Source of the DNA: Candidatus Omnitrophota bacterium
GTDB taxonomy: Bacteria; Omnitrophota; Omnitrophia; Omnitrophales; Aquincolibacteriaceae
Length of the DNA: 64,000 nt
Assembly (NCBI GenBank): GCA_035352955.1
Contig: DAOPYQ010000003.1
Span: 76,901-140,900 of the forward strand
Direction of reading: 5' to 3'
The notes under the pieces are model-generated. The model was not told where the DNA came from. It was given only the letters and a program-made list of their open reading frames with translations, and did not search any database. The translations under genes and the position numbers were made by a program. Positions 2,884 through 32,689 of the stretch are shown piece after piece; the stretch's first letter is position 1, and each line of letters begins with the position of its first letter.

Positions 2884-4335
2884 ATGGTATGTTGGCGCAT
2901 GGATCCGCAAATCCGTCAAACCCAATCCCAAAAGATGGTCCTCTCCCCGCAAATGCGGGAGTATCTCCGCCTGCTGCATCTTCCTCTCGCGGACCTCCGC
3001 CAGGCCGTCGAAAGCGCCCTGGAGGAAAACCCGCTGCTGGAAGAAACTCCCGGCAAAGAGGAAGAAGAGGCCGTCGAACCCGCGCCCGTTTCTCCCGTGA
3101 TGGAAAGCGACGACGAGATCGATGAAACCGAAGCCGCCCTTCCGGAATGGGCCCGAAAAGAACCGCTTTCCTTCACGCAATCCCCGTCGGACCTGGCGCG
3201 ACGCGATCCTGGGGACGCGAAAAAGATCCGGAATTTCCAGGAAACTCTCATCACCCGACCCGAAAGCCTCTTCGATTATCTCGAGTGGCAGCTCCCCTTC
3301 CTGGCACTCGACAAGTCCGAACAGAAGATCGCCGAAGAGATCCTCGGGAACATCGACCCGGACGGTTACTTGACCGCCTCCTTGGCGGAGATCGCCGCCG
3401 CCACGCACGGCACGTCGGAGCAGGTCGAAGAAGTCCTCCGGAAGGTCCAGCAACTGGATCCGCCGGGCGTCGGGGCGCGCAACCTCCGGGAAGCGCTTTT
3501 GATCCAGCTCGAGAGGAAAGGAACCCCGGTCGCTTTGGCCACAGAGATCGTCCGGGACCATCTGGACCTGCTGGCGAAAAAGGACTGGAAAATGCTGGAG
3601 CGGATCTTCAACGCAAGCGGGCCGGACATCAAAAAAGCGGTGGAGGTCGTCTCCCGGCTCGAGCCAAAACCGGGGCGCAGTTTTTATACCGAGGAAGCGA
3701 TCGCCGTCACGCCGGACGCAACGGTCTCGATCAAGGACGGTACGAATGACGGCCTGGAAATCGACCTCCATAAGGAATTCATTCCCGAGATCCGGATCAA
3801 CCCGGAATACCGGCGAATGCTCCGCGAAAAAGACACCGATGCCCAGACCCGGGAGTTCCTGAAAATGCGGCTTGCGAGCGGCCAGGATTTTTTGAAGGCG
3901 TTGGAGCAACGGAAATCGACGCTCCGTGCGATCACAGAAGAACTCGTCCGGGCCCAGCCGCTCTTTTTCACGCGCGGGTTTTCCGAGCTTCGTCCCCTGC
4001 GCCTCAAGGATATCGCCGAACGGTTGGGGCTCCATGAATCCACCGTCAGCCGCGCGATCCACGGGAAATACCTCAAGACCCCGCAGGGCACGATCCCGTA
4101 CAAAAGTTTCTTTTCAAAAAAACTTGAAACCGCGGACGGAGAAGGCGAATCCCAGAAAAGCATCCTGGAGAGGATCCGTTCGCTGGTCGAAAAGGAAGAT
4201 CCGAAAAAACCGCTGAGCGATCAGGCGCTCCTCAAGGCGCTTGAAGAAAGCGGGATCCGGATCGCGCGCCGCACGGTCGCCAAGTACCGCGACCTCCTGA
4301 AGATCCTCCCCACCCATCTCCGCAGGCAACGGTAG
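2884..4335 (+). CDS. rpoN: RNA polymerase sigma-54 factor
   Basis: N-terminal Q/L-rich region (QKMVLSPQMREYLRLLHLP), an HTH, and the C-terminal RpoN box ARRTVAKYR. The second ATG at 2899 (MDPQIRQ) is an equally plausible start. Confidence 0.95.
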   Translation: MVCWRMDPQIRQTQSQKMVLSPQMREYLRLLHLPLADLRQAVESALEENPLLEETPGKEEEEAVEPAPVSPVMESDDEIDETEAALPEWARKEPLSFTQSPSDLARRDPGDAKKIRNFQETLITRPESLFDYLEWQLPFLALDKSEQKIAEEILGNIDPDGYLTASLAEIAAATHGTSEQVEEVLRKVQQLDPPGVGARNLREALLIQLERKGTPVALATEIVRDHLDLLAKKDWKMLERIFNASGPDIKKAVEVVSRLEPKPGRSFYTEEAIAVTPDATVSIKDGTNDGLEIDLHKEFIPEIRINPEYRRMLREKDTDAQTREFLKMRLASGQDFLKALEQRKSTLRAITEELVRAQPLFFTRGFSELRPLRLKDIAERLGLHESTVSRAIHGKYLKTPQGTIPYKSFFSKKLETADGEGESQKSILERIRSLVEKEDPKKPLSDQALLKALEESGIRIARRTVAKYRDLLKILPTHLRRQR

Positions 4336-4362: not shown

Positions 4363-5115
4363 CTATTTCGGAAGGGTCCGGTAGGCGTCGCGGATCACGT
4401 TCGAAGCGATCGCCAAGGCTGCGTTATCGCCGCCCCGGCGGCCGCCGCTCACAAGTCCCAACAAATACCCTTTCCGGTCCAGGATCGGCGACCCGCTGTC
4501 GCCGCTATAAAGATGAAAACCGAAACGCACCTGCACGAAGGCCGGCCGGACCCCCTGGGGAGCGGGTTGTTTTAAAACAGCGCTGACCTCCCCGCCGAAA
4601 AGCGACCGGTTGTGGTCGAGGGCGTGCCCCATGCAATAGACTTTTGCTCCTGGCAAAAGACCGTCGGAATTCGCAAGCGGCACATAAGCGAGCGGAAACG
4701 GCGGCACGATGGAGAGAAAGGCGATATCGGTTTCCGGGATCACCTGAAGGATCCGCCCTTCGGCGCGGGTCCCATCAAAAAGTTTCACGGAGACCCCGGC
4801 CGCATCCCGGACGATATGGGCGTTGGTGACAAGGATCCCTCGCGGGTCGATAATGACACCGCTGCCGCTCCGCGCGTACTTGACGATCCTGCCGGGATTC
4901 CGGCTGAGGAAAAGCGCCGCCGTACCACTATAAGCGCCTGCTTTTTGTACGCCGGGTCCGGCCGCATTAACGCTTTCGATCGTCACCAAAGCCGCCGACG
5001 GTTGGGAGGACGCGGACCGCCCGGGAGCGCAGACCCCGGCCGACGCCCCCTCCAAGAGAAAAAAGACAAGGCACAGCAGCGCACAGACCTTCTTTGGCTT
5101 AGACAAAAGGATCAT
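4363..5115 (-). CDS. secreted trypsin-like (S1C/HtrA-fold) serine protease without a PDZ domain
   Basis: Signal peptide MILLSKPKKVCALLCLVFFLLEGASA. Catalytic motifs TNAHIV, a candidate catalytic Asp in ETDIAFL (assignment not verified by alignment), and GDSGSPI. Confidence 0.8.
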   Translation of the reverse strand: MILLSKPKKVCALLCLVFFLLEGASAGVCAPGRSASSQPSAALVTIESVNAAGPGVQKAGAYSGTAALFLSRNPGRIVKYARSGSGVIIDPRGILVTNAHIVRDAAGVSVKLFDGTRAEGRILQVIPETDIAFLSIVPPFPLAYVPLANSDGLLPGAKVYCMGHALDHNRSLFGGEVSAVLKQPAPQGVRPAFVQVRFGFHLYSGDSGSPILDRKGYLLGLVSGGRRGGDNAALAIASNVIRDAYRTLPK

Positions 5116-13142: not shown

Positions 13143-13787
13143 TTATCCTTTGAGTATGTCCTTCAATTGTTGTGCGGCTTTTCCCGTATCCTTCGCCGCA
13201 AATAAGGCCCTGACAACAGCAACGCGGGTCGCCCCCGCATTCATGACCGAGCGAACATTTTCAAGATCGATCCCCCCGATCGCGACCCAGGGGATCCGGA
13301 CACTCCCCGCAACCTGGCGGACAAACTTCAACCCGAGCGCGTTCGCGTCCGGCTTGGTGGGCGTCGTAAATACCGCGCCGACCCCGATATAATCGGCCTT
13401 TTCACGTTGCGCCTCAAGCGCCTGCCGGAGATTATGGGTCGATTTTCCGATCCAGAGCTTCCGCCCGGCCTCGCGGATCAGCTGCCGCGCCGCCGGAACG
13501 GGCAAATCACCCTGCCCGAGGTGGACCCCGTCCGCTCCCGCAGCAAGCGCCAGATCCACACGGTCATTCACAAAAAATAATTTCCTGAAACGCGCCGCGA
13601 TCTTGCGGATCCTGAGACCCGCCCGGAGCATCACAGCATCCGTCAGGACCTTCGAGCGCAGCTGAACGATATCCGTCCCGCCGCGGAAGGCTTGTTCGAC
13701 TTTCCTGAAAAGATCCCCGCGTTCTTCCGCGAGATCCGTGACAGCGTAAAGACTAAAACTCCTGAAAACGTTTTCTTGCCAACCCAT
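13143..13787 (-). CDS. thiE: thiamine-phosphate synthase
   Basis: LYAVTD...IVQLRSK...FFVNDRVDLALAAGADGVHLGQGD...IGVGAVFTTPTK...VAIGGI. The track ORF extends to 14003, but that part overlaps the upstream gene. The ATG at 13787 sits directly after the upstream stop. Confidence 0.9.
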   Translation of the reverse strand: MGWQENVFRSFSLYAVTDLAEERGDLFRKVEQAFRGGTDIVQLRSKVLTDAVMLRAGLRIRKIAARFRKLFFVNDRVDLALAAGADGVHLGQGDLPVPAARQLIREAGRKLWIGKSTHNLRQALEAQREKADYIGVGAVFTTPTKPDANALGLKFVRQVAGSVRIPWVAIGGIDLENVRSVMNAGATRVAVVRALFAAKDTGKAAQQLKDILKG

Positions 13788-15940: not shown

Positions 15941-16486
15941 TCAAACCTGCGGCGCACCGACTTCTTCGATCCCCTTCACATCACAGATCACCGTGACCTG
16001 GTTGTCGGCGCCCAAAAGCCGTTTCACCCGCTCATACACTTCCTGCTGCATCTCGGAAAGAAGCGATGCCACCTGCCCGCCGGCCCACAGAACCAGCCGC
16101 AACTTCACTTCCACGCTCTTCCCGCTGATAATGACCTTGACCTTCGCGTTTTTAACGAGCGTAAAGTGCTTCAAAGCCTTGAGCGAAGCGTTCTCGATCG
16201 TCCCCATAGAGACCACCACGGCCCCCGCGTCGCTATGAAAGATCACCGCTTCATTCGGCCGGCCGGACTTCACCAGCATTTTGGAAAACGAAAGCCCCAA
16301 GACGATAAAAATGATCCCGACAACCCCCACCTGCACCGACCGCCACGGATTTTGATAAATCTCCTGGAGCCGCAGAATAGCGTCGTCAAACGCCAGCAAA
16401 TGAAGCGACATGATGATCAGCAAACTTCCCAACGTCAAAAAGGAGAAGATCGCGAAGAGCTGAGCGAAGGCATTGCCGACTTTCAT
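15941..16486 (-). CDS. membrane protein, Asp23/AmaP-like (alkaline-shock membrane anchor), tentative
   Basis: Two N-terminal transmembrane helices, then an Asp23-like beta-rich domain (KVKVIISGKSVEVKLRLVLWAGGQV...VTVICDVKGI). Confidence 0.55.
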   Translation of the reverse strand: MKVGNAFAQLFAIFSFLTLGSLLIIMSLHLLAFDDAILRLQEIYQNPWRSVQVGVVGIIFIVLGLSFSKMLVKSGRPNEAVIFHSDAGAVVVSMGTIENASLKALKHFTLVKNAKVKVIISGKSVEVKLRLVLWAGGQVASLLSEMQQEVYERVKRLLGADNQVTVICDVKGIEEVGAPQV

Positions 16487-20273: not shown

Positions 20274-20452
20274 GACCCCTACGCTTCCGTTTGACCGGTC
20301 CAACCCCCTGGGTTAGACGACTCATTTCGCGCCATTGTAACCGATTTCCTATAAACCTTTCAACCTTTCACAACTTTTCCGTCTAAAACCCACTTCGGAG
20401 ACCCGGTCTCCGAGGCGGTGGGTACGCCGTTCGAAAAAAAACGCCCACGGAT

Positions 20453-20536
20453 AAAAAAAAAGAGGTTCGTGACCGAGTGGGGATCTTTGTGGCCACGAAC
20501 CTCTGCAGGTGAGTCGAGACCCGTAAGTCTCGCAAT
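20453..20536 (-). ncRNA. candidate ~84-nt small RNA (promoter-to-terminator unit)
   Basis: It begins about 7 nt after a TTGACA-N17-TATAGT promoter. It contains hairpin CGAGAC-UUACGG-GUCUCG and a 10-bp terminator stem (gaggttcgtg/cacgaacctc) followed by U9. I recognise no known RNA family. Confidence 0.4.
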
Positions 20537-20542
20537 GAAGAT

Positions 20543-20571
20543 ACTATACTCCCAAAATTCCGGACTGTCAA
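20543..20571 (-). promoter_or_regulatory. near-consensus sigma-70 promoter
   Basis: The minus strand reads TTGACA gtccggaattttgggag TATAGT. The spacer is exactly 17 nt by my count. Confidence 0.5.
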
Positions 20572-20656
20572 CGGCGCGGCCCGCCTTCTCACCCCATATT
20601 TTCATTGCAAAAACCCCAAGTAAAACCCGGCCTTGCTAGAATGACGGGCAGGAAAA

Positions 20657-20733: not shown

Positions 20734-23700
20734 TTAAGCGGCCGACGCGATCCTCTGGAACGCTTCGAACAGCACCTGCATGTTCTGCAGCATGCCATCG
20801 ATACTCTTCTTCGTGATCGCCAAACCCGAGGCGCCTTCTTTTTCAAAACCCGGCATTTTCAACAAAAGATCGGCCATCTGCTCCGGCGTCATTCCGCTCA
20901 GATTCCAGATCTTCTGGGCGCCGCGCATAGCCACACGACCCACCGCAGCCTGCGAAACGGCCCCCTGAACATTGTCCGCTTCGCGAACCACCACCCCGGT
21001 GACAAAGCTAAGATTCAGAAAGCTCAGAGCATTCGCCGTACCGGTCAAGACATACCCTTTCCCTTTAACCAGGGCCAGGAACTCCGCTGCCTTGGAATTA
21101 AAATCGTGCGCTTGAGGATCAAAAACCCTGATATCCACCTGGCTGATGAACGCCGGCCGGTGGATCTTATTGGCCCACGCCGCAAAATCCAGGAGAACCT
21201 GACGCACCGCGGCAGCATCGATCCCCGAGCCCAGCACCATCGTATCAAACCGCATATTGGGGTTCAGAAGCAGATTAAACTTCAAGAGAGCCAGAAACAC
21301 CTTCGGGTCCTTGAAGCCTTCGATCACTTTCACCAGACGGCCCGCATCCCCGCTGATCGGCAGAGGCATATTCGGCACCGCATTCTGCAACTGCTCCGTC
21401 AGACCCGTAATGGTCCGCTCATCGACAAGCAATGAGATCGCGATGATCACCGGCGCGAGAGCTTCCATATTGTCGCGTGCAATCCCCTCCGTCAGCGCCA
21501 CCGCCACCTTAAGCGCCGGCGTTTTGAGCTCAGATTCCGGGATCCCCATCGCCTTCAGCGCTTCCCGTGTCGTCTCCATCGCCGTCCGGACCTGCTGCTT
21601 TGTAAAATTCTGTTCGACCCACTTGGCTACGGCAAGCTGCCTTTCGGAAACAGAAACGTCCCGGCGTTCGGCGCGCCCGGCTTCGGCGGCCTTGACCTTT
21701 GCAGCCTCCTCGAGACGCTCAGCCTTAGCCTTCGCCGCGAGAGCGAGAGCGATCGCCCGCATCTCATCAAAAGTCGCGCCCCGGTCGATCGCCGTCTTGA
21801 TCGCCACACGCCCGGCGCCCTCAATTTCAGCCAGCGACACCACCGCCGAAAGCAAGAGAACCTCCCGCTCATCCGACGTGGTCGCCTTGTCCGTAATAAT
21901 GTCGCGAAGCGAACGGAAACCAACGATTTCCCGGCCCTCGGCATCGCGGGCGGGAGCATCAAAACTATTAAAGAAATCCGTGTACTTCTGATATCGAGTG
22001 TCCGTCTGTCCCAGAATGAGCCCGGCCGCATCGGGCTTGGCATCCGCGGGAATCTTCAACACGTTCCAGAAGGCGTGACTGACCTGGTGCTTGGATTTTG
22101 CAGCCGCATTCCACACCTTGAAGTCCGCGATGTTATTGTTGTCCTCAAGCGCCAGACCCGGCACCTCGCGGCTCAGAATCTCAAGAGCTTTGTCCGAGGT
22201 CATTTCCAATTTCCCGGCGCGCGGCGACAAAGCCGTACGAACGGACGGCGCTTCGATCCTAGTGACAGCCTCCTCGCTCAGAACCCACTCCTGGGGAAAC
22301 GTATTGATCCCGGAAGTCAATTTTGTGAGATCCAGATCCTTCGGGATCATGACATTCTGCGGCGCGATCCCCCGCACCAGGTGGCGGATGTAAAGATTTC
22401 CTTCAAACGCGAACACCGCAACCACAAAATTCGCATCCAGAACAAACTGCGGATCGTTCGAGCTGACCCGGATCTCCACTTTTTTCTTGTCACCGCTCAA
22501 GCGCACATTGATACGGCTCGGAACACCTTCCAGGTCCGTCCTCGCGGCATTCACGGAAGTTTCGAGAGCCGTCGCCTCCAGTACTTCGGACTGGATCGCC
22601 AACGCCTGCTCCTTCGTGTATGTTTTGAGGCTCCGGATAAGCTCCTGAAGCTCGGTTTTCGTAGCACCTTCGGGGAACCCATACGTTTCAACGATCGTCT
22701 CCAACGTCCGCACAAGCTCCGGCCTTGAATTTTTCATGAAATACGCATTCTCAAACGCACGCACTCTCAAACCCAAATTGGTATCTTGCGGCGTGAACGA
22801 CCGCTGTCTTATAATGGAAGTCAAACGGAAAGCCTCGTCCAATTCGTTCAACGTCATCTCCCGCTTCTCTGCGCGGAGGGTGGAAAGGGCCAGCGACGAA
22901 AACAACCGGAAAGCCTCGTCGGCGCGGGCCTGATCCTCCGGAGCAACGGTAAAGAGTTTCGTTTTGATCGATCTCAGGGTCATGGAGGTATCATCCCCAT
23001 CGTCGTACTTTTGTTTCGCCATCTGGATGATCCCGACGAGGTCCATCGTCGTGATCCCCCGAGCCACACTCTCAGCTTCCGTCAAAGCGCTCAGGATCTG
23101 CGGAGGATCGATCACCCTTGAAAGATCCGAAGCCGTCAAGATGGGCTCTTCCTGTCCGACAACCGTTGGCGTCCTCTGAGCCGCAGTAGAAACCCTGATC
23201 GCTGAAGCCAGCGGCGGCACATTCGCCGCCATGGGAACATCCCGCTTCTCACTGTTGGCGCGAAGTTCCTTCGAAACAGCGGCCTTCGCGGCTTCCGAGA
23301 ATTTCCCGGTAAAAAACGGATTCAATTCCGCGAAAGTATCGCGACTGACCGAGGGCCTCCGGGCCTTCCGGTACAATTGCCACGCGCCATAGATCGCCTT
23401 AACCAACGATTCGTTGCCGGTGGCACTCTGGGTAGCCGCCCAAAACGCGGCATCGATCTCTCTGTCCGTTAAAGTCCCCTGTTGAACAACCTGCAGCGCT
23501 GTCCAATTCACCGTGGGGTCACCCTCCTCCGTCAGACCACGCTTCTCCGCGCGGATTTCTTTGCGCGACGCGGCATCGAGCATGGGACGAAGCCCGTCCA
23601 AATAGTGTTTCACGGCCGCATTGTAGGCCTTGGCTTTGAAAACGCTTGTATTGGCATAAAGATCCTTAACCGTTTTAAGAGCATCCCGGTCCAGCGGCGT

Positions 23701-26700
23701 GTCCACCGGTGTCGCGCTATCAAGTCCGACGCCTCCGTTCCGTCCTTTCCCCAAATCCGCGGCCTCGCTCCGCACCGCAGCGCCGCCGGCGTTAAACCGG
23801 TAGAAAGAGATCAGATCATCGAACAGCGCCATCCATTTTTCGGCACGCACAGCCTGCGAATTCTTGGGATCCAAGGCTCCCGCAAGAAGATCTTCCAAAA
23901 CAACGTGCTTGCGCGCGCGAACGATCTTGACAAGATCCTCAACCGTTTTCGGGGCTTCGACCAGCGCCCCAGCCGTCACAACGGTCCCCGTGGGAGTCAC
24001 GACCATCCCGGCCGTCGCAGCAACCGGAACCGACGTCATGAGCAGACCCGCAGCCGCCAGTTCCTGGATTCCGAGCCGCTTTTCCGCCCGGGTGATGTCC
24101 ACGATCTCGTTAGAACCAAGTAAAACCACCATCACACGGCCTGTTACCTGCCGGACCTCGGTACTGTTCGCGTTCAAGCCGGGCATGTGCTCGTCCCAAA
24201 GTTGACGCAAGATCGGAAAGACAATCCGCGAATTGACCGCGTAGAAATCAAGCCCTTTGAATGCGCCGACACCTTTACGCGCAACGATGGCATTCGCAAG
24301 CGCTTCGATCAGCCGGTCCTGCTCATCAGCGGCAGTAGCCAGACGCAATCTCGTCGCTAAATCAATGACCTCGGGCGCTGTGCTTAAGAATTCTATAGCT
24401 TCCAGATTTATTCCCTTCACCTCCGAGCGGGCGGGAGGACGGACCCCGAGCCGCTTTTCCGCCCGGGTGATGTCCGCGATCTCGTTAGAACCAAGTTTGA
24501 TCCGGTGAGTCACGGGACTCATGGCCCGGTTAATGACGACCCTGTAGGAAACTCCCGTCTTCAATTGTCCTTTGAGGAGCTCCTGCCAACGGAAAGTCCG
24601 ATCATCGAAAACAATCGTCGGCCCATCCGTCGTAACATGCACCGTCATCCCGATCCCCTTTGACGCATTCTTTTCCAAACGTCCCGCCAGGAAAGGAACA
24701 ACCTGGTCGGCGGAAAGTACTTCAGTCGCCAACTGGCGCGCGGCAACGACAACGTCGCGATTAGCCTCAACATGGGCAGTCTCGATCTTCCGCGCCAGAT
24801 CCTCTTTCTGAAGATCGTCGTAGAATTCGGCTCCCAACACGCCCTGCGAAATCTCCGCCGCGGAATAGCCCTTCGAATCGGACTGTTTGATCAGCTCGAT
24901 CTGCGCCGCATTCAAGCCGAAACTCTCAAGGCCCTCGGCCAACCTCGCCATAAGCTCGAAATTAACACCTCGCAGCGTCAGCGCAAGCTGCAACGTCTCA
25001 CGCTGGATCGCCAACGCGAGCCGCTGTCTCGCGCTTTTGATCCGGCCTTTAACAAGATCCCGGTCGATCGACAGGAAATCCTCGGCAAGCTCCGCGGTGG
25101 ACGCACGGTCCAACTCACTGAGCCTCTTAAACTGCGGAACCGCGCCCGTCCAGAGACGCAGCTGCAATTCGATACGTTCGGGGCTGGTTGTGAGCCACCG
25201 TTTAAGAGACTCACTCTGCTTCGGAAAAAGCGTCACAAAAGATTCGGCCAGATCCCTGAAAAGTCCGGTAAAGAGCATCGCCAAAGGTAAAAACAAAGCG
25301 ATCCCCCCCACCGCCAACGCGTACACCGGGATCCCGAGAGATGCATTAGCGAACGCCACCGCCGCCGCCACAGACACTCCGGCACTCAGGGCGAGACTCC
25401 CCCCGCGGATAACCTGCATAGTCTTTTCAGAAAGCGGTGACACCGAAGGCTCTTCGAGGGAAGATTGGTAGACCGCTGACCAGACGAACTTGAGGACTGC
25501 GCGGATCACGGTCGTAGAACCGGCCGCGATCAGCAAAAACACTGCGATAGTCGGCAGAACCGCCAGCGTACCGACTGCTGCTGCCAATGCCTGCAGAAAG
25601 AAAAACGCCGGGATCAACGCCAGCATCCAGCTGGCCGTTTCCAGGCTTCCACGAATCCCGGCTTCCCTGTCCTCACGGGCCTGTTCGGCTTGCATCGCTA
25701 CGGACATCGCCGGATTGAGCGCCGCGTTTGCGAGATTCACCTGACGGCGTTCCGCGACACGCGCGGCTTCTCCCGAGACGTAATAAGAGATCTGGTCATA
25801 AATAACCGCAAGCGACGGGATCGCAAGTGTCGCCGCGACGATCAGGGGCATGATAAAAATCCCGGTCACCCCGGCCAACACTCCGCTGATGAACGGATAC
25901 ACAAGACCGGCGATCGACGTCGCTCCGGCGGCGATATTCGCGCCCAGGGACGTTCCGATCGTCATAAAATCCTTTTTCTCGCCGCGCTTTTCCGCGCGGA
26001 TAGAAAAAGCAAAAGCATTGAAAGCTCTTTCAGCGACCGCAACGGTGATCCTGCCATCATCATCCACCTGCGGGGCGAAAAGAAGCTCCCACAAACGCGT
26101 CAGATCCGGATTAGCAGACATCTTCGGGATTTTCCCTGTCGCCCGCACCATGACCCCCTGACGTTGATGATAAGCCTCCCAGGCCGCCTGGAGGACATTC
26201 CAAACATTTTTGTCGCGTTCCACCGCCTGAGTAAGAACAGCCCTATGAAAAGCCGACTCGATCTCCACCGGGGTCGGCTTAAAATCCATCCCCATCGGAT
26301 CCTTGGCATACGCCTCAACAACCCGGGCAAAGGTTTCTTCGAGAATAGCCGCGTCCTTGATCCTTTTAGGGTCAAAACACTGCGTCTTAAGCGTCGCCAG
26401 GTCCATGTTGGCGGGCGTTCCCAGGCGCTTTTGTTCCTCTAGCCATTTGGAGTACTGTCCCATGGCTGAATCAAGAGCATCCTGGATCTTAGAGATCTTT
26501 ATTTTCTCAGGGGACTCCTCGGCCGCGTTCCGGAACGATGAGCTTTCAATTTCGGCGGCCAATTGGACCCTTTCAAAAGCCCTCCGGATCTGGAAAGATT
26601 CCAGATCCGCCCGCAGGTCCGCGCCGCGTCTTTCCGAGCGCAGACTGGACACGAACAGATCATAGGCCTCATCCACATCCGCCTGCGTGATCCGGGGTTC

Positions 26701-29700
26701 CGCGGTTTTGGGTTGACGGCCCGTCTGTTCGGTAAAAAACGACTTCATGCCGGACAACGTTAAGGCGGCTATTTTCTTGTAAGCTTCCGCTTGTCCCCGG
26801 GCAAGTGTCACCTCTTTGTTGTAAGCCTCCCAAGCCTGTTCGAGAACATTCAACGCGGAACCCGTCGCAAGGGCTGACGCCCGGTTAAAAGCGAACCACG
26901 CCCGAAGACCATTCACCGGCGTTTGCGGATTTACTCCGGTCGTTTCTTCGGCGCGTTTTTCCTGGCGCGACGCAGGCAGGCTCAATGGCTTGAGGATCCA
27001 AAGAACGCCGGCCACAGTGATGGTCGCGTTGGAAGTCGCTGTGGTGGCCCGGAGAATTATCGGCGTTTTGCGGTGACGAACCTCCATAAGAACGGCGTTA
27101 ACGCCCTGGAATTCCTCGTCGGTTAAAAACCGTCCGAGGCTCCCGCCTTTTTTACCATCCTCATATTGAACCACCGGATATTTCGCAAGGACCGCTTCAA
27201 GACGGCTCTGTTCCGCAACATTGTTGGTTTGCTGGGCCTGCGTAAGGGCTTCGGCGATCTGACCGATCTGGACCCGGACCTGGTCGGCGTCGACCTGGAG
27301 GAACTTCGCAAGATCCGCGACCTGCTTCTCGGTAAATACTATCTTCTGCTCCCCGGCAAGCTGCGTCGCCCGTTTTTCTTGGCGTCCGGCAAGTGTCACC
27401 GGGACGGAAAAAAGCGGCCGTATCTCGATCGCATTGTCCTTCATACTCACCGAATATGTTTTTTCCATCGTCTCGGGAATCGAGTCGGGAAGATCCATCT
27501 GAAGCTTGAACTGCGCCAATTCCCCGAGATTTAAACTGTTTTTCGTCAACATCTGATCGTCCCCGGAATAGTTCCCCTCAAAAATGGGGTCTTTTCCGAC
27601 GAGATCGCTGTCCCCGAATCCGAAGATCCGGAGGGCCACGGAAGTCCTGCGGCCTTTATTTCCACGCGCGGTCAGCGTCCAAAGAGTATTCACCACGCGC
27701 GGAATGTTCTCCAATTGCGTTCCGCGGAGCTCCTTGCGGCCAGCGGCATTGAGAAACCCATTCGTCCCGCCAATGATCCCGGCAAAAAGTGTCGGAGAAT
27801 TGAGAAAAGCATTTGTCATGATCGTGTAGCTCGGCGTTTGGGGAGTCGCCTGAAAACCCCGGCTCACGACCGCCCAACCATTCGTATCGGTCAACCGATT
27901 GTTCGCGACAATATAAAAAACCATGTTGGTAATGTCCGAGGAAGTCCCCATCGTCCAACCCGCGAGAACCCCAGTGGGGGTTTTCTCAAGAAAATTCATG
28001 CGAGGAGAAGCCTCAGTGGTCTCGCCTTTACCAAACGAAACAAGTTGCGTCCCCACAGGCACTTCATTTGTTGTAAAAGCACCCGCCACACTCGCTATCG
28101 AGAGAGCAAAGATCAACCCAAGTGCGCGCCACATAGCCGGCAACATTTTCAAATTAACGGGCCCGCGTTCTGACGGCGTTCCGCGGAGCTCCTTGCGGCC
28201 AGCGGCATTGAGAAACCCATTCGTCCCGCCAATGATCCCGGCAAAAAGTGTCGGAGAATTGAGAAAAGCATTTGTCATGATCGTGTAGCTCGGCGTTTGG
28301 GGAGTCGCCTGAAAACCCCGGCTCACGACCGCCCAACCATTCGTATCGGTCAACCGATTGTTCGCGACAATATAAAAAACCATGTTGGTAATGTCCGAGG
28401 AAGTCCCCATCGTCCAACCCGCGAGAACCCCAGTGGGGGTTTTCTCAAGAAAATTCATGCGAGGAGAAGCCTCAGTGGTCTCGCCTTTACCAAACGAAAC
28501 AAGTTGCGTCCCCACAGGCACTTCATTCGTCGTGAAAGCTCTCGCCGAGAGCACTGCCCCAAACGCGAGAGACACGGCCAGCAAAATCGATTGTAATCCC
28601 CGGGAAATATAGATCGGCGATTTCACAACGGGCGCCGTTTCCTCAACGCCGAGGCCAAGCGCTGTAAAAAAGTTCATACCCAACCTGACCCCCAGCGCGC
28701 TAAGCGACCTCATCAGAGTGACATCCGTAAGCACCGGCATCACGGCCAAAAAGTCCCGGATCTCCTGCGTCAAACCCGGTTCGAGCGGACGTGTCGCGAT
28801 AATGTTATTCAACTCGGCAGCGATCTTTTCTTCCTTCTGGGCCCGCGTCATGCGCTTTTCCGCGCGGGTGTACGTGACCAGGATCGCCGGATTCCCAAAC
28901 CTGGAAGGACGGATTTGCACAACAAACGGCCCCTTACCGTTAACAGCCGCTAAAGCGTTCGTCAGGCTTTCCGGACCGGAATAATTGACCGGTTGCTCCG
29001 CCGTATCGCCGCCCATGATGAGAAAAACTCTTGCGGAAGGATTCAGTTCGACAAGACGGGCCACGGCTTCACGGACCCCGTCCAGATTGTCCACCTGCTT
29101 GGGTCCACGATAGTCCCGCCCGTCGATCACAGCGTCCACCTCGCCCCTCTTTTCCGCGCGGGGAGTACCCACGTCCCGATCGTCTTGAATCACGCCACCC
29201 GCAACCGGACCCATTTTTAGTAGATTCATATCCCCCGTAGGAATTTCCGGGGATTTCATCCGCGTGGCGGGTCCGTCCGGAAAGATACTTTTGGAAAGAC
29301 TCGCTCTCTCGTTCCTGTTGCGGATCCAGCGGGCGGCCGAAACCGCTCCGGCGACAACCCCCACGCCAAGGATCACGGCGAGAGACACGCCGGTCGTAAG
29401 AAAAGCCAGTCCTGCCGCCGCCAACGCGATCGCGACGCCGCCGAGAACAATGCTGTCTTTCCAGGCAGGCTGAAAATAAACCATCGAAATTTTGGAGAAA
29501 TCGAACTTCCCCGACGTGAGATCAGGGATCTTCCACTCGGCCAGCATTCTCTTGGCCAGTGTTTCCCTTTCATTAATACTAAAAAGCCTGTCTTGTAGCA
29601 AATGGTGTGCGAAGTTCGTCCTCTCGTCCTGCAGCAGCCACGGACTTTGGGCGGTCTGGGGAAGCTCCCGCTTTTGGTCCTCAGACTTCCCGCCGTTAAT

Positions 29701-31788
29701 GGCAAGAAGCCGCATAAGCTCGTTAACTTTCTCGGGAGTGTAGATCGCGTTAAGCTTTTCGATCGCAGCCTGGCGGACCGCCGGATCCTCACTTCCCAGA
29801 TCCCTTAGCGATGCCGCGGCAATTTCATTTCCCTTGTCCAAGGTCGGCGCAAGCATCTCAGGCAAAATCTGCCCCATTTGAACGGCAATCGTGTCGTCGA
29901 CTATGGCAGTCGCACCGTCGATCCCGACCTGGTCGGGACTGACCTTGCGAAGAACGCGGTACGTTTCACCGCCCTCTTTCGCTTGGACGAGCCGCAACTC
30001 ATTGCGACGAGCCATGGGCCCGTCATTCACGTCAGGAAGGATCCCGGCAGGTGTTGGGACTTCTGCCACTTTGGTTGCGGTCGCAAGTAATTTGCCCAGG
30101 ACCCCCAGTTCCCCAACACCCTGCGCATCCTGGCCGACAGGTCCTTTGAGCGGCTGAGCGAGAAGGGTTTTTTCGACAAAAGACAGCTCGAAATTCTGCT
30201 TTCCGTCCTGGAGCATGGTGGAGCGGTAAAGTCTCTCGTCGGATTTTTCACTAAGGCGCGGGGTGACGATCCCATAGCTCACGGAATTTTCGCGGAAAAG
30301 GTCGCTCATGCCGTCCGTGTGAAAACCGCCCGTGATAAGGACGGCCTTCGTGATCTTGCGCTGGCTCATGGCGTTCTGCATTTCTTTATAGAAGACGCCT
30401 TCACGCTGACGGGCGAAACCGTAGAACTCAAGGCCGGTCTTGAACAGCTCGGTCATCTTTCCGCTAAAAGCCTTGGGCATGACCTCCTGGTCTTTGCGGA
30501 CCGAGGTATCCCCCGCGGCAATGATCGCGGTCTTCAGGCGTTCGACAAGGTTCGTCACGGTCACACGATCCCCGGCATCGACCAGCTCGCGCCACTGCGT
30601 GCGGCTCAACTCCAGATGCAAAAGCTTACGCAAAAGCTCACCGTCCCTGTAAAGGGCAAGGAGGGCCTTCTGCTGAGGCTCCTTGGCTAAGGCATCGAGC
30701 ATCTGCGTAAAAAGGTATTCAATCTCCGCGAACAGGACCTTGGGGTCAAGTTCGGCCCGGAGCGTCACGTAACCGGCAAAAAGGCTGAACGCAGGATAAT
30801 CGCTGAATTTGAATCCTTTGGGGGCGACTTCAGCGGCAAGGCGCTCGAGCACGTCGCGCGGAGAAACTTCCTGCGCGGATTTTCCGACGGAGATGCTCCC
30901 TTCATTGAAACTTTCAAGCGCGGCAAGAAGTTCTTTCGAGACGCCCTTCGTTTTGAGCATTTTGAGAAGCGCGGCCTTTTCTTCGAGTCCCTTGGCTTTG
31001 TCCAGGGACTTTTCCATTTCCTGGATGGCCAGAAGGCGCGTGATCTGCGGCCAGCCGGCCTGGGCGAAAAGGCTGTTAAGATCGACATCGAGGATTCTCC
31101 TGGACTGTTTGGCGAGCTGCTGAACGAAAGGCATGAATTCGCGGCGGCCCAGCTCGAAACGTTTCCAGTCGGCGATCAGGGCGCGCGTCTCGGGCGTAAA
31201 GACCTTGGAGGCGGCCCGGTCGAGCTTCTGATCAAATCCCTGAAAGAAACGGTTGACGTCGGGTTCGGCGCCGAACACTTTCTTCAGCGCTTCGTAGTTG
31301 GCCTTGTAAAGAGGCGCCTGCTCGATGCCGAGTGCTTCGACGTTCTTCTCGTTCTCCATCAGGAACAGTTCGGAACCGGTCAGCTCGCCCTGCTTGGCGA
31401 GTTCGTCGCACAGTTTAAGATTGCGTTCTTCATCGGGAAAAAGGCGGAGATAATCCGCATCGAGTTTGGTCGAGGCCCCTTCCACAAAAATGGTCGTGAA
31501 TCCGTATTTCTTGTTCATGTGCTCCAGAAGTTGCTTGATCTTCATCTGGGCTTGATAATTGGCGTGCGCGTTCTGGATATGAAGGATGAATTGCGGTGCA
31601 GTAGATGCGGGCGCTTCGTAAAGAGCATCGACGGTGCCGAGATCCACGGGAACATCAATGCTTAAATAAGTGGGCAGTTCTCTCTTGGACGCAATTTCGA
31701 TATTAGCACCGGGGGCCCCCCATGCGATCTGTGTCGTGAGAAAGCAAACCACGGTCGCCGCCGCGATCACCTTCAGGCCCTTTTTCAT
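20734..31788 (-). CDS. giant modular secreted/membrane-associated protein (3,684 aa), function unknown
   Basis: One uninterrupted ORF with an ATG start and GGAGGA 8 nt upstream. Signal peptide MKKGLKVIAAATVVCFLTTQIAWGA. Hydrophobic clusters are encoded near 29335-29460, 28540-28600, 28075-28146 and 25240-25980. Contains the repeated RAEKR motif and internal tandem duplications. Confidence 0.9.
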   Translation of the reverse strand: MKKGLKVIAAATVVCFLTTQIAWGAPGANIEIASKRELPTYLSIDVPVDLGTVDALYEAPASTAPQFILHIQNAHANYQAQMKIKQLLEHMNKKYGFTTIFVEGASTKLDADYLRLFPDEERNLKLCDELAKQGELTGSELFLMENEKNVEALGIEQAPLYKANYEALKKVFGAEPDVNRFFQGFDQKLDRAASKVFTPETRALIADWKRFELGRREFMPFVQQLAKQSRRILDVDLNSLFAQAGWPQITRLLAIQEMEKSLDKAKGLEEKAALLKMLKTKGVSKELLAALESFNEGSISVGKSAQEVSPRDVLERLAAEVAPKGFKFSDYPAFSLFAGYVTLRAELDPKVLFAEIEYLFTQMLDALAKEPQQKALLALYRDGELLRKLLHLELSRTQWRELVDAGDRVTVTNLVERLKTAIIAAGDTSVRKDQEVMPKAFSGKMTELFKTGLEFYGFARQREGVFYKEMQNAMSQRKITKAVLITGGFHTDGMSDLFRENSVSYGIVTPRLSEKSDERLYRSTMLQDGKQNFELSFVEKTLLAQPLKGPVGQDAQGVGELGVLGKLLATATKVAEVPTPAGILPDVNDGPMARRNELRLVQAKEGGETYRVLRKVSPDQVGIDGATAIVDDTIAVQMGQILPEMLAPTLDKGNEIAAASLRDLGSEDPAVRQAAIEKLNAIYTPEKVNELMRLLAINGGKSEDQKRELPQTAQSPWLLQDERTNFAHHLLQDRLFSINERETLAKRMLAEWKIPDLTSGKFDFSKISMVYFQPAWKDSIVLGGVAIALAAAGLAFLTTGVSLAVILGVGVVAGAVSAARWIRNRNERASLSKSIFPDGPATRMKSPEIPTGDMNLLKMGPVAGGVIQDDRDVGTPRAEKRGEVDAVIDGRDYRGPKQVDNLDGVREAVARLVELNPSARVFLIMGGDTAEQPVNYSGPESLTNALAAVNGKGPFVVQIRPSRFGNPAILVTYTRAEKRMTRAQKEEKIAAELNNIIATRPLEPGLTQEIRDFLAVMPVLTDVTLMRSLSALGVRLGMNFFTALGLGVEETAPVVKSPIYISRGLQSILLAVSLAFGAVLSARAFTTNEVPVGTQLVSFGKGETTEASPRMNFLEKTPTGVLAGWTMGTSSDITNMVFYIVANNRLTDTNGWAVVSRGFQATPQTPSYTIMTNAFLNSPTLFAGIIGGTNGFLNAAGRKELRGTPSERGPVNLKMLPAMWRALGLIFALSIASVAGAFTTNEVPVGTQLVSFGKGETTEASPRMNFLEKTPTGVLAGWTMGTSSDITNMVFYIVANNRLTDTNGWAVVSRGFQATPQTPSYTIMTNAFLNSPTLFAGIIGGTNGFLNAAGRKELRGTQLENIPRVVNTLWTLTARGNKGRRTSVALRIFGFGDSDLVGKDPIFEGNYSGDDQMLTKNSLNLGELAQFKLQMDLPDSIPETMEKTYSVSMKDNAIEIRPLFSVPVTLAGRQEKRATQLAGEQKIVFTEKQVADLAKFLQVDADQVRVQIGQIAEALTQAQQTNNVAEQSRLEAVLAKYPVVQYEDGKKGGSLGRFLTDEEFQGVNAVLMEVRHRKTPIILRATTATSNATITVAGVLWILKPLSLPASRQEKRAEETTGVNPQTPVNGLRAWFAFNRASALATGSALNVLEQAWEAYNKEVTLARGQAEAYKKIAALTLSGMKSFFTEQTGRQPKTAEPRITQADVDEAYDLFVSSLRSERRGADLRADLESFQIRRAFERVQLAAEIESSSFRNAAEESPEKIKISKIQDALDSAMGQYSKWLEEQKRLGTPANMDLATLKTQCFDPKRIKDAAILEETFARVVEAYAKDPMGMDFKPTPVEIESAFHRAVLTQAVERDKNVWNVLQAAWEAYHQRQGVMVRATGKIPKMSANPDLTRLWELLFAPQVDDDGRITVAVAERAFNAFAFSIRAEKRGEKKDFMTIGTSLGANIAAGATSIAGLVYPFISGVLAGVTGIFIMPLIVAATLAIPSLAVIYDQISYYVSGEAARVAERRQVNLANAALNPAMSVAMQAEQAREDREAGIRGSLETASWMLALIPAFFFLQALAAAVGTLAVLPTIAVFLLIAAGSTTVIRAVLKFVWSAVYQSSLEEPSVSPLSEKTMQVIRGGSLALSAGVSVAAAVAFANASLGIPVYALAVGGIALFLPLAMLFTGLFRDLAESFVTLFPKQSESLKRWLTTSPERIELQLRLWTGAVPQFKRLSELDRASTAELAEDFLSIDRDLVKGRIKSARQRLALAIQRETLQLALTLRGVNFELMARLAEGLESFGLNAAQIELIKQSDSKGYSAAEISQGVLGAEFYDDLQKEDLARKIETAHVEANRDVVVAARQLATEVLSADQVVPFLAGRLEKNASKGIGMTVHVTTDGPTIVFDDRTFRWQELLKGQLKTGVSYRVVINRAMSPVTHRIKLGSNEIADITRAEKRLGVRPPARSEVKGINLEAIEFLSTAPEVIDLATRLRLATAADEQDRLIEALANAIVARKGVGAFKGLDFYAVNSRIVFPILRQLWDEHMPGLNANSTEVRQVTGRVMVVLLGSNEIVDITRAEKRLGIQELAAAGLLMTSVPVAATAGMVVTPTGTVVTAGALVEAPKTVEDLVKIVRARKHVVLEDLLAGALDPKNSQAVRAEKWMALFDDLISFYRFNAGGAAVRSEAADLGKGRNGGVGLDSATPVDTPLDRDALKTVKDLYANTSVFKAKAYNAAVKHYLDGLRPMLDAASRKEIRAEKRGLTEEGDPTVNWTALQVVQQGTLTDREIDAAFWAATQSATGNESLVKAIYGAWQLYRKARRPSVSRDTFAELNPFFTGKFSEAAKAAVSKELRANSEKRDVPMAANVPPLASAIRVSTAAQRTPTVVGQEEPILTASDLSRVIDPPQILSALTEAESVARGITTMDLVGIIQMAKQKYDDGDDTSMTLRSIKTKLFTVAPEDQARADEAFRLFSSLALSTLRAEKREMTLNELDEAFRLTSIIRQRSFTPQDTNLGLRVRAFENAYFMKNSRPELVRTLETIVETYGFPEGATKTELQELIRSLKTYTKEQALAIQSEVLEATALETSVNAARTDLEGVPSRINVRLSGDKKKVEIRVSSNDPQFVLDANFVVAVFAFEGNLYIRHLVRGIAPQNVMIPKDLDLTKLTSGINTFPQEWVLSEEAVTRIEAPSVRTALSPRAGKLEMTSDKALEILSREVPGLALEDNNNIADFKVWNAAAKSKHQVSHAFWNVLKIPADAKPDAAGLILGQTDTRYQKYTDFFNSFDAPARDAEGREIVGFRSLRDIITDKATTSDEREVLLLSAVVSLAEIEGAGRVAIKTAIDRGATFDEMRAIALALAAKAKAERLEEAAKVKAAEAGRAERRDVSVSERQLAVAKWVEQNFTKQQVRTAMETTREALKAMGIPESELKTPALKVAVALTEGIARDNMEALAPVIIAISLLVDERTITGLTEQLQNAVPNMPLPISGDAGRLVKVIEGFKDPKVFLALLKFNLLLNPNMRFDTMVLGSGIDAAAVRQVLLDFAAWANKIHRPAFISQVDIRVFDPQAHDFNSKAAEFLALVKGKGYVLTGTANALSFLNLSFVTGVVVREADNVQGAVSQAAVGRVAMRGAQKIWNLSGMTPEQMADLLLKMPGFEKEGASGLAITKKSIDGMLQNMQVLFEAFQRIASAA
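24071..24496. repeat. intragenic dispersed repeat: two 51-nt copies (50/51 identical) 375 bp apart
   Basis: 24071..24121 and 24446..24496 both read ccgagccgcttttccgcccgggtgatgtcc[a/g]cgatctcgttagaaccaagt. They encode LGSNEI[V/A]DITRAEKRLG. Confidence 0.85.
27717..28527. repeat. intragenic tandem duplication, period 459 bp, with a 352-bp core that is 100% identical
   Basis: 27717..28068 equals 28176..28527 base for base in my line-by-line comparison. Similarity decays after that (ttgtaaaagc versus tcgtgaaagc). The antisense track ORFs 27656..27958 and 28154..28417 share identical peptides. Confidence 0.95.
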
Positions 31789-31960: not shown

Positions 31961-32689
31961 TTAAATGGTTACGAATTCAACGCCAAAACCAAGTTGCTCC
32001 TTGCGAACTTCCTCTCGACGGATCTTCCCGGCAACCTGGTACTCCTCCGGAAAATTGGCACTTGGGAAGATATGAATGTCGACCTTGAGTCCCGCAAGGG
32101 GCCCAAGAGCCGAGATCCGATGCGCCGCACCAAGGTCCAAATACTCCGCAAACAGCCCTCCTTCGCTGATATTGGTCGCGATGGCGCGCGTTTGGAGAAC
32201 CTCCCCCTTCGGGCTTGTGATCGTGAGCTTCAGCGGGATCGCCACATGCATACGATGACTGCGGCGCTTTTCGAGCTGGTGCCCCGGCGAATCCTGCGGG
32301 TTTTTTACCCCCGGCGCCATGATGCGCTTTTCCGCGTCCTTGTCAAAAAGGAACGGCCCGAAACTTTCCGCCACTTCCTTTTCGTCCGCGCACACGTCGA
32401 CCTTCCCGGTAAAGCAATTATCCTCGAGATAATGGGCCATCTCCGCGGAGGCCCCATAGATCACACTGTGCTTGGGGCGGATGCAGACCGTCAGCAGCCT
32501 TCGCAGACCGATCGCGTCAAGCGCTCCGGCCTCCTGGAAATTCAAAATGATCCTCTGCAGACGGTGGCGCCGAATGTTCTTCTGGATCTTCCAGGCAACC
32601 TCCTGCACGGATTCAAAGGTCGGCTCTCCTTTCAAGTCAAAGACAGCGACCCCTCCGATCTCTCTGGTGGAATAGTGGAATTTGCTCAT
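31961..32689 (-). CDS. STAS domain - PilZ domain fusion protein (putative c-di-GMP receptor)
   Basis: The N-terminal STAS fold (VAVFDLKGEPTF...IILNFQEAGALDAIGLRRLL) has Ala where SpoIIAA-type proteins carry the phospho-Ser (DAIG versus DSSG). The C-terminal PilZ motifs are RRSHR (RxxxR) and NISEGG (D/N-x-S-x-x-G), about 30 aa apart. Confidence 0.85.
   Translation of the reverse strand: MSKFHYSTREIGGVAVFDLKGEPTFESVQEVAWKIQKNIRRHRLQRIILNFQEAGALDAIGLRRLLTVCIRPKHSVIYGASAEMAHYLEDNCFTGKVDVCADEKEVAESFGPFLFDKDAEKRIMAPGVKNPQDSPGHQLEKRRSHRMHVAIPLKLTITSPKGEVLQTRAIATNISEGGLFAEYLDLGAAHRISALGPLAGLKVDIHIFPSANFPEEYQVAGKIRREEVRKEQLGFGVEFVTI

Follow-up and report, generated by a model that had tools for sequence, protein, structure and literature searches.

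A giant protein of 3,684 amino acids, encoded in a stretch of 64,000 nucleotides (hereafter the window) from a Candidatus Omnitrophota bacterium (assembly GCA_035352955.1, contig DAOPYQ010000003.1, positions 76,901 to 140,900), carries the pentapeptide RAEKR and close variants of it at the ends of successive modules. We find that RAEKR reads as the window lineage's own flavour of a junction motif, R-[S/A]-E-x-R, that marks module boundaries throughout a family of large Omnitrophota envelope proteins, secreted or membrane-bound, and is replaced by other motifs in some of its clades. Our explanation is that the motif would be a clade-specific protease processing site in a polyprotein-like modular protein, a reading whose chances we put a little short of even. 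The open reading frame (ORF), its modules and the individual motif copies are listed in Table 1.

A junction motif shared across the family

The seven exact copies of RAEKR lie at the very nucleotides given for them in a preliminary description of this DNA, and so do the variants that it listed (RQEKR and RKELR, two copies each, RSERR, RAERR and SEKR). It had also argued that such a recurrence could not be chance, with good reason: amino acid composition predicts 0.007 copies of RAEKR in the giant ORF, and the broader pattern R.E[KRL]R, present 14 times, averaged 0.22 copies over 300 shuffles, none of which had more than 2. The first ~700 residues had been described as free of the motif, but they include the variant RNELR at residue 595, which matches in position, and with a homologous flank, the RSELR of the relatives P0017 (602) and P0039 (565). 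Consecutive motifs are separated by 98-511 amino acids, a spacing of the size of a domain. Single junctions can be lost, because the window protein has the decayed copy RAGKL where three homologs keep an intact motif. The copies differ among themselves in synonymous codons (CGC/CGG, GCG/GCA, GAA/GAG and AGG/CGC/CGG/CGT), and therefore the constraint is on the protein. Outside the giant ORF the window has a single instance of R[AQS]E[KR]R, in a plus-strand frame at 16456, and the other window genes (16.8 kaa, thousand amino acids) hold 2 instances of R[SA]E.R against 1.0 expected, i.e., the chance level.

With the N-terminal 780 residues as query we retrieved 46 proteins, typically of 1,000-1,350 amino acids, the named ones among them being almost all from Omnitrophota or Omnitrophica. 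The family alignment, searched against metagenomes, gave 477 relatives, from which 79 loci were retained; many of the ORFs in these loci exceed 3,800 amino acids and run off the end of the fetched DNA. A scan of species-representative genomes yielded a single relative, L002, from a Candidatus Omnitrophota metagenome-assembled genome, whose protein is 63% identical to that of the window over residues 1-572 and unrelated beyond. The family members have a common plan: after a signal peptide comes a conserved domain of ~500 amino acids, then a variable middle, and lastly a C-terminal domain of ~310 amino acids.

In 119 family proteins other than that of the window (206 kaa, nearly all from Candidatus Omnitrophota), R[SA]E.R occurs 254 times where 12.1 instances are expected. 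Position 2 of the motif in these relatives is Ser in 163 cases and Ala in 81, and position 4, taken over 244 instances, is Val (36%), Leu (17%), Ala (14%), Met (10%) or Thr (9%), together 86%. The conserved residues are R1, E3 and R5, set within an extended consensus S-[AS]-[APSG]-R-[SA]-E-x-R-[SGAN], and the residues that flank the motif are small or Pro-rich, like those of a linker. Individual lineages have their own flavours: in the 3,954 amino acids of the L002 homolog RSE[VMLI]R is found 12 times, RAEVR is used in L047, L049 and L079, RAELR in L045, RSEVR in L080, RAEAR in L009 and RSELR in L011. Across lineages the Ser of the motif is coded by both TCN and AGY and the Arg by both CGN and AGR, and therefore selection acts on the amino acids. 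Most of the other large ORFs with several motif copies at the retained loci end in the C-terminal tail of the family (see below), and the remaining ones belong to split family genes (L059 and L060), of which they are unterminated downstream parts.

Three other interpretations were tried and rejected. A general, proteome-wide signal does not agree with the sampled loci, where the motif is at chance level in the other window and locus genes, and a DNA repeat or uptake-type signal does not agree with copies that vary synonymously and across codon families. An internal Shine-Dalgarno sequence followed by a start codon, suggested by GGAGGTGA with ATG or GTG at position 4 in L002, has the wrong spacing, and the window version of the motif has neither feature.

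The preliminary description had likened the E-K-R end of the window copies to a kexin/furin-type site and had named, as one secreted protease to be tried and with no link to the motif, the trypsin-fold protein encoded at 4363..5115. We find cleavage after KR at a site of this type hardly credible. The dibasic pair is missing from the sampled relatives, in which position 4 is Lys in 0 of 244 instances and Arg in 1 of 244, and whole clades of the family use the non-basic motifs x-SLG or GFG (described below) instead, although the window copies do end in K-R and the residue after R5 is often small, a feature that would suit a cut after Arg. The gene of a Trypsin_2 protein is 16 kb away, and nothing links it to the motif. 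Among the genes upstream of the family gene, none is common to more than 9 of 56 loci, in a comparison of upstream flanks that stops short of the trypsin-fold gene, which lies downstream. Pfam searches with ten neighbouring window ORFs found one Trypsin_2 and no subtilase, and no kexin-type subtilase is tied to the motif. The Trypsin_2 protein itself (4363-5115, minus strand) is real and contains one RAEGR, by chance.

Modules as motif-bounded cassettes

The AWEAY/AWQLY core noticed in the preliminary description is real: it belongs to a helical module of ~95 amino acids (AFxxA...AWxxY...AFxxF...R[SA]ExR), present in four copies in the window protein, each of which begins just after the preceding motif, and in at least four copies in the relative P0048. 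The accompanying suggestion, of a degenerate repeated domain that ends in the motif, describes these four AW modules well and fails for most of the other motif-terminated modules, which are unrelated to AW. Every detectable internal repeat of the window protein ends at a motif. When the 78 segments of 110 amino acids that precede a motif were compared at E<=1e-3, clusters had no more than 5 members and most segments were singletons. Since the segments before the motif are mostly unrelated, the motif is not simply part of one repeated domain, and the idea that it belongs to one tandem-repeat fold failed for the same lack of homology.

Relatives of individual modules are very scarce. An exhaustive HMMER search with residues 2201-3400 against 1.84 billion representative proteins gave only three non-self matches, all covering the same module (residues ~3061-3191) and all packed with R[SA]E[VMTALQ]R; for the modules within residues 2201-3060 this set contained no relatives. 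The protein P0049 is a syntenic ortholog, whose downstream genes are the same as those of the window giant gene. BLAST finds in it only one module in common with the window protein (residues ~3061-3193), plus the C-terminal tail pattern, and to share so little despite synteny implies a fast turnover of modules. The boundaries of exchange can be seen in an 847-amino acid block, 89% identical between L070 and L080, which begins 5 amino acids after a motif, ends exactly on a motif and sits at different offsets in the two proteins. Overall, 28% of BLAST blocks start within 10 amino acids of a motif, compared with 6% for random positions. The preliminary description had proposed that the motif punctuates successive modules, in the manner of a linker or processing signal, and this extends family-wide to module boundaries; as in a polyprotein, a short conserved motif stands between independently folding units. 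These comparisons show modules being gained and lost, duplicated and exchanged as cassettes that the motif delimits. A tandem duplication in the window gene copies a unit of 153 amino acids, made of a hydrophobic signal-like segment, a beta-rich module and RKELR, and it is either very recent or an assembly artefact.

The last motif also has a constant place. The conserved C-terminal domain begins 2-8 amino acids after it in P0049, L009 and L011, and in the window protein RAERR (residue 3372) precedes the C-terminal region of residues 3377-3684. A hidden Markov model of the C-terminal domains of the homologs did not detect this window region, which has in common with the family only the tail pattern and its position after the last motif. 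In the 41 family proteins whose C-termini were tabulated, an amphipathic helix is followed by a tail in which the last residue is always Ala and the second-to-last Ser or Ala (for example ASA, SAA, KAA or QSA; the window tail, ...FQRIASAA, is at 20737-20790). By its sequence, this tail looks like a C-terminal recognition tag. Its likeness to the residues just upstream of the junctions was too weak to be used.

Table 1. The giant ORF of the window, its domains and modules, and the junction motif copies, ordered from the N- to the C-terminus (positions are those of the window).
Feature	Residues	Position	Strand	Remarks
Giant ORF	3,684 aa	20734..31788	-	Omnitrophota family: signal peptide, TIKI-like N-terminal domain, variable modules, C-terminal domain
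N-terminal signal peptide	1-25	31714..31788	-	MKKGLKVIAAATVVCFLTTQIAWGA; read from the sequence; hydrophobic segment; kept in homologs
Conserved N-terminal domain	~45-530	30199..31656	-	TIKI/TraB/ChaN/erythromycin-esterase-like fold (predicted)
RNELR	595-599	29992..30006	-	First junction motif; not in the preliminary description
RAEKR	877	29146..29160	-	
RAEKR	975	28852..28866	-	Met directly after
Tandem duplication		27717..28475 (cores 27717-28016, 28176-28475)	.	459-nt period; 300-nt cores 100% identical
RKELR	1198	28183..28197	-	End of duplicated module copy A; then signal-peptide-like MWRALGLIFALSIASVAGA/FTT
RKELR	1351	27724..27738	-	End of duplicated module copy B
RQEKR	1469	27370..27384	-	
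RQEKR	1608	26953..26967	-	
AW module 1	1620-1721	26626..26931	-	Ends RSERR
RSERR		26626..26640	-	End of AW module 1
AW module 2	1835-1935	25984..26286	-	Ends RAEKR; transmembrane cluster after it, aa 1956-2181
RAEKR	1931	25984..25998	-	End of AW module 2
Module	2352-2446	24451..24735	-	Ends ...GSNEIADIT-RAEKR
RAEKR	2442	24451..24465	-	
Paralogous module	2482-2571	24076..24345	-	Ends ...GSNEIVDIT-RAEKR; hydrophobic segment after it, aa 2579-2597
RAEKR	2567	24076..24090	-	
RAEKR	2746	23539..23553	-	Overlaps RKEIR at aa 2742
AW module 3	2760-2849	23242..23511	-	Ends in weakened NSEKR
SEKR (weakened NSEKR)		23242..23253	-	End of AW module 3
AW module 4	2885-2976	22861..23136	-	Ends RAEKR
RAEKR	2972	22861..22875	-	End of AW module 4
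Only module with detectable relatives	~3061-3193	22207..22608	-	Homologs end RSEMR, RAEVR, RSEAR
RAGKL	3190	22207..22221	-	Decayed copy; not in the preliminary description
RAERR	3372	21661..21675	-	Last junction motif
C-terminal region	3377-3684	20737..21660	-	Ends in amphipathic helix and ...RIASAA-COOH

Replacement of the motif between clades

The family members that are without R[SA]E.R carry other recurrent motifs, namely [AG]-[AQS]-S-L-G (x-SLG), observed 63 times against 5.3 expected, and [small]-G-F-G-A (GFG), observed 14 times against 0.4 expected. The first copy of x-SLG or GFG lies at residues 579-703 and the first copy of RxExR in the family at residues 510-710, so that the two ranges overlap. 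In a neighbour-joining tree of the N-terminal domains the type of motif is clade-specific, with at least two switches. Such switching is how a recognition site that drifts together with its recogniser would be expected to behave.

Export signals after the junctions

Hydrophobic segments tend to come after the junctions in the window protein and its close relatives: of 48 motifs, 18 have one within the next 40 amino acids, as against 4.9 +/- 2.0 under random placement, a count of 18 being reached in none of 2,000 trials. Seen from the other side, 19 of the 31 internal hydrophobic segments of these proteins have a motif before them. Several of the segments that follow a motif resemble cleavable signal peptides ending in AxA. 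Examples (the slash marks the end of the signal-like segment) are ...ARA/FTTNEVP and ...AGA/FTTNEVP in the window protein, and the homologous units RAEVR-MSVLKSVAMAAILTGALAGPAPA/LEI of P0048 and RSELR-GGLQSALMLATVAVILNAMPVRA/LEI of P0049. All six internal signals of the twin-arginine translocation (Tat) type found in the family are located 2-27 amino acids after a junction motif, as in RSEAR-VL-TRRGFLK of L010. These Tat-like motifs (TRRGFLK, SRRSFV), each with its h-region, lie deep inside the giant proteins (L010, residue 2124; L056, 904; L060, 1012; L050, 668; L055, 646; L076, ~1676). A rule by which every junction would be followed by a transmembrane or signal segment was dropped, as it applies to the close relatives and is weak in the wider family.

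If the motif is the recognition site of a protease, the giant protein would be a polyprotein that is cut at its junctions into separate module proteins, some of which would begin with their own export signal of the general secretory (Sec) or Tat type. The site and the specificity of the protease would then drift together between lineages, as happens with the sites between the effectors of MARTX toxins or with the cleavage sites of viral polyproteins. For the cutting enzyme one may think of the cis-encoded TIKI-like domain described below or of a new protease. The stronger statement, that these are true bacterial polyproteins in which one giant ORF is cut at R-[SA]-E-x-R, x-SLG or GFG into many proteins, seems to us possible, and we make it only tentatively.

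The N-terminal domain

The N-terminal domain is kept in more than 100 proteins. Four of its residues, H75, E103, E156 and H490, are invariant, and H70 almost is. An AlphaFold2 model built from an alignment of 40 sequences has a predicted local distance difference test score (pLDDT) >90 over most of residues 45-520, and in it H75, E103 and H490 follow the predicted core strands 67-73, 99-102 and 481-487. The model has the alpha/beta fold with a parallel beta-sheet core that is also found in Ere, ChaN, TraB, HopBA1 and RRSP, and includes a helical insertion of ~320 amino acids. In a fold comparison the erythromycin-esterase-like structures 2rad and 2qgm scored 9.3 and 8.5, HopBA1 (5t09) 9.1, EreC (6xcq) 8.9, TraB (8bqs_DQ) 8.7, ChaN (2g5g) 8.6 and the MARTX effector RRSP 7.3. 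Foldseek found no significant match for the model in the PDB, the family profile retrieved nothing from PDB sequences at E<=10, and the domain had no match at E<=1 to Pfam or NCBIfam, including the Pfam TraB, ChaN and erythromycin esterase models.

The TIKI/TraB/PrgY/ChaN/Ere superfamily has a 2His/2Glu site and includes the endopeptidases Tiki and RRSP (PMC6254334). With this site the His/Glu/His arrangement of the modelled domain would fit. Invariant His, Glu and His at predicted strand ends may be one likeness to the superfamily, and an extracytoplasmic location is another, Tiki and PrgY being extracytoplasmic; the large insertion, the missing profile matches and the non-significant Foldseek result set the domain apart. 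Among the known members of the TIKI/TraB superfamily, none carries such a series of modules with a motif between them. The domain is the obvious candidate for a protease that would cut the junctions in cis. We treat this as only a lead, because the Foldseek, Pfam and PDB searches were negative, there is no superposition of residues and a single alignment column discriminates between motif types.

Processing, structural junction or punctuation?

Several facts speak against processing. No cleavage product has been observed, and the proposal comes from sequence alone. No conserved protease neighbour of the family genes was found in the upstream flanks compared, and only one column of the N-terminal domain (N164 vs D) separates the RxExR from the x-SLG clades, which gives no sign of co-evolution with the site. 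The topology of the uncleaved chain would put copies of the motif on both sides of the membrane, which is awkward for a single protease. In the wider family a hydrophobic segment follows the motif in only 11 of 150 cases against 5.0 expected, and this weak association implies that most modules are without an export signal of their own. Internal Tat motifs can work without cleavage, as in the actinobacterial Rieske proteins, which are inserted by Sec and Tat together. Finally, the model of an AW module places the motif at the end of a helix and not in a free loop, and the codons of the motif show a position-specific bias, which may point to a further constraint, on the nucleic acid or on translation. 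It is because cleavage is unobserved, no protease is identified, the motifs of an uncut chain fall on both membrane sides and most modules are signal-less that our confidence in processing stays under even.

One could think instead of an uncleaved junction, structural or for docking, a possibility that we regard as rather unlikely. The motif would be a conserved cap or latch that ends each module; an R-E-R salt-bridge face, for instance, could bind a common partner or the conserved N- or C-terminal domain, or set the spacing of the modules, all within one membrane-threaded chain. Its location at module ends is what such a junction would require, and published analyses do treat the giant proteins as single polytopic chains. 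We found, besides, neither a protease partner nor co-evolution with the N-terminal domain. The AlphaFold2 model of AW module 2 (eight sequences, mean pLDDT 72.6; no fold match in the PDB by Foldseek) is a four-helix unit that carries its last helix through the motif, with RAEKR at the C-terminal end of it, and in the N-terminal model RNELR is at the end of a helix and leads into a beta-strand. However, the pLDDT falls from 88 to 57 over the RAEKR of the module. The preliminary description had named a motif buried in the core of a known repeat fold as an observation that would speak against its proposal; in neither model does the motif appear buried, but rather at the edge of the unit, an impression given without coordinates on which burial could be measured. 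In a passive linker, moreover, one would rarely see three charged residues stay invariant while hundreds of contexts around them are otherwise unrelated, and the wholesale replacement of the motif by x-SLG or GFG fits a changeable recognising partner better than an intrinsic element of the fold. Lastly, a single hydrophobic segment separates the two identical tandem modules of the window protein, which in an uncut chain would lie across the membrane from each other.

The codon bias leads to a third explanation, in which the 15 nucleotides of the motif would serve as micro-homology for the in-frame exchange of cassettes, or would slow the ribosome at the ends of modules, by their codons or by the nascent peptide, and so let the modules fold or target the membrane; the peptide motif would then be partly a by-product. 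This we consider improbable. We examined codon usage in the window gene, L002, L003, L004, L005 and 16 further loci. Of 140 copies from 16 genes, 110 have CGC or CGT as the codon of R1 (background 37%), no more than 8 have AGR there (background 30%), and 66 have CGG at R5 (background 22%); 10 of the 12 copies in L002 start with CGCTCGGAG. Homology blocks that end at motifs, the several paralogs found per contig and the location of some motifs directly upstream of export signals are also in line with it. Against it, Ser is TCN or AGY and Arg CGN or AGR across lineages, position 4 is free, and what is conserved is the amino acids and not the bases; CGCGCGGAAAAGCGC of the window has little in common with CGCTCGGAGGTGAGG of L002. 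A tract of 15 nucleotides is also short for homologous recombination.

Gene neighbourhood and paralogs

An identical copy of the giant protein is present on 4 metagenome contigs. The protein matched no family of Pfam or NCBIfam at E<=1, and Pfam found no family in three relatives either (L002orf, P0048 and P0049). The genes that flank the giant ORF are housekeeping ones: PheT, MgsA, PilZ/STAS, DUF1844, an LPG-synthase-like protein, BCCP, biotin carboxylase and GltBD. The STAS and PilZ protein (31961-32689, minus strand) is directly upstream of the giant gene and on the same strand, and the arrangement is the same in L001. This may reflect a regulation linked to cyclic di-GMP or mere adjacency.

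Genomes can have several paralogs of the family, sometimes in tandem, each with a different set of modules; examples are contig Ga0247727_10000056 (L048, L070 and L073), L005 (10001-22443) and L029. At L059 and L060 the family ORF ends early, and after 87 and 13 nucleotides, respectively, another long motif-rich ORF follows, which suggests frameshifts, sequencing errors or a natural splitting of the gene. The break points are not at a motif.

Small ORFs are also found next to these genes. One lies at 20400-20650 of the window, between the giant gene and the DUF1844 gene, and is called in L001, at 13184-13429, as an ORF of 81 amino acids. Another (…FYHLFNKSIAGFEIF…HFHFLV) adjoins family genes in L005 (15924-16571) and, 209 nucleotides downstream of the family gene, in L009. 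The latter may resemble a REP-associated or IS200-like tyrosine transposase. It could be relevant to the turnover of cassettes.

Comparison with known systems

One analogy, which is not one of homology, is with the MARTX toxins, very large secreted proteins in which conserved termini flank variable, recombining and unrelated effector modules, with short sites between them where the chain is cut. Conserved termini and exchangeable modules are likewise what the Omnitrophota family has. The conserved ends of the two are not homologous, neither glycine-rich RTX repeats nor an inositol-phosphate-activated cysteine protease domain were detected by Pfam in the window protein, L002orf, P0048 or P0049, and cleavage is in the present family a proposal. 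MARTX sites are cut after Leu by the cysteine protease domain, whereas the sites here would be R-[SA]-E-x-R, x-SLG or GFG.

Viral polyproteins, such as those of flaviviruses with their NS2B-NS3 sites and signal peptidase, also have short lineage-specific junction motifs between unrelated units, and there too some junctions are followed by an internal signal with an AxA-type end; the window flavour even shares the dibasic pair followed by a small residue. In contrast, we are dealing with a cellular bacterial gene in a housekeeping neighbourhood, the chain contains no chymotrypsin-like domain, most modules have no signal and the processing is hypothetical. The window protein thus works, on our reading, in the manner of MARTX toxins or viral polyproteins but belongs to neither group.

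The giant proteins already published from Omnitrophota ("Archaeovorins", dockerin-type; West-Roberts et al. 2023, Seymour et al. 2023, Nielsen & Lui 2026) come from the same phylum and share with the window protein the long ORFs, the signal peptide, the scattered transmembrane helices, the few annotated domains and the poor conservation, and post-translational cleavage has been proposed for them. The window protein is smaller, at 3.7 kaa, and none of these papers gives a motif for cleavage or for junctions. We found no description of the present motif in Pfam, in NCBIfam or in these three papers; a full-text search for the peptide strings gave only unrelated text, and the text of Nielsen & Lui 2026 contains none of the words "motif", "cleav" or "linker". 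The kind of system, a large modular protein with sites between its modules, is known; the motif, its clade variants and the TIKI-headed family seem new.

Some of the longest genes on record belong to Omnitrophota, and whether their products work as one chain or as cut pieces is an unsettled question. The cleavage points in their giant proteins are unknown, which has blocked structure prediction piece by piece (West-Roberts et al. 2023). The motif described here is a statistically overwhelming, family-wide boundary marker that changes form between clades, and it predicts termini that could be sought in metaproteomes. It also offers a principled way to split giant proteins into units for structure prediction and annotation, and it suggests how these giant genes evolve, the cassettes between motifs being acquired, lost and swapped. 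If the motif is indeed a processing site, a cellular organism would here be using a polyprotein strategy with a recognition code of its own, and the motif would provide a general rule for dissecting the giant genes of the phylum into functional units.

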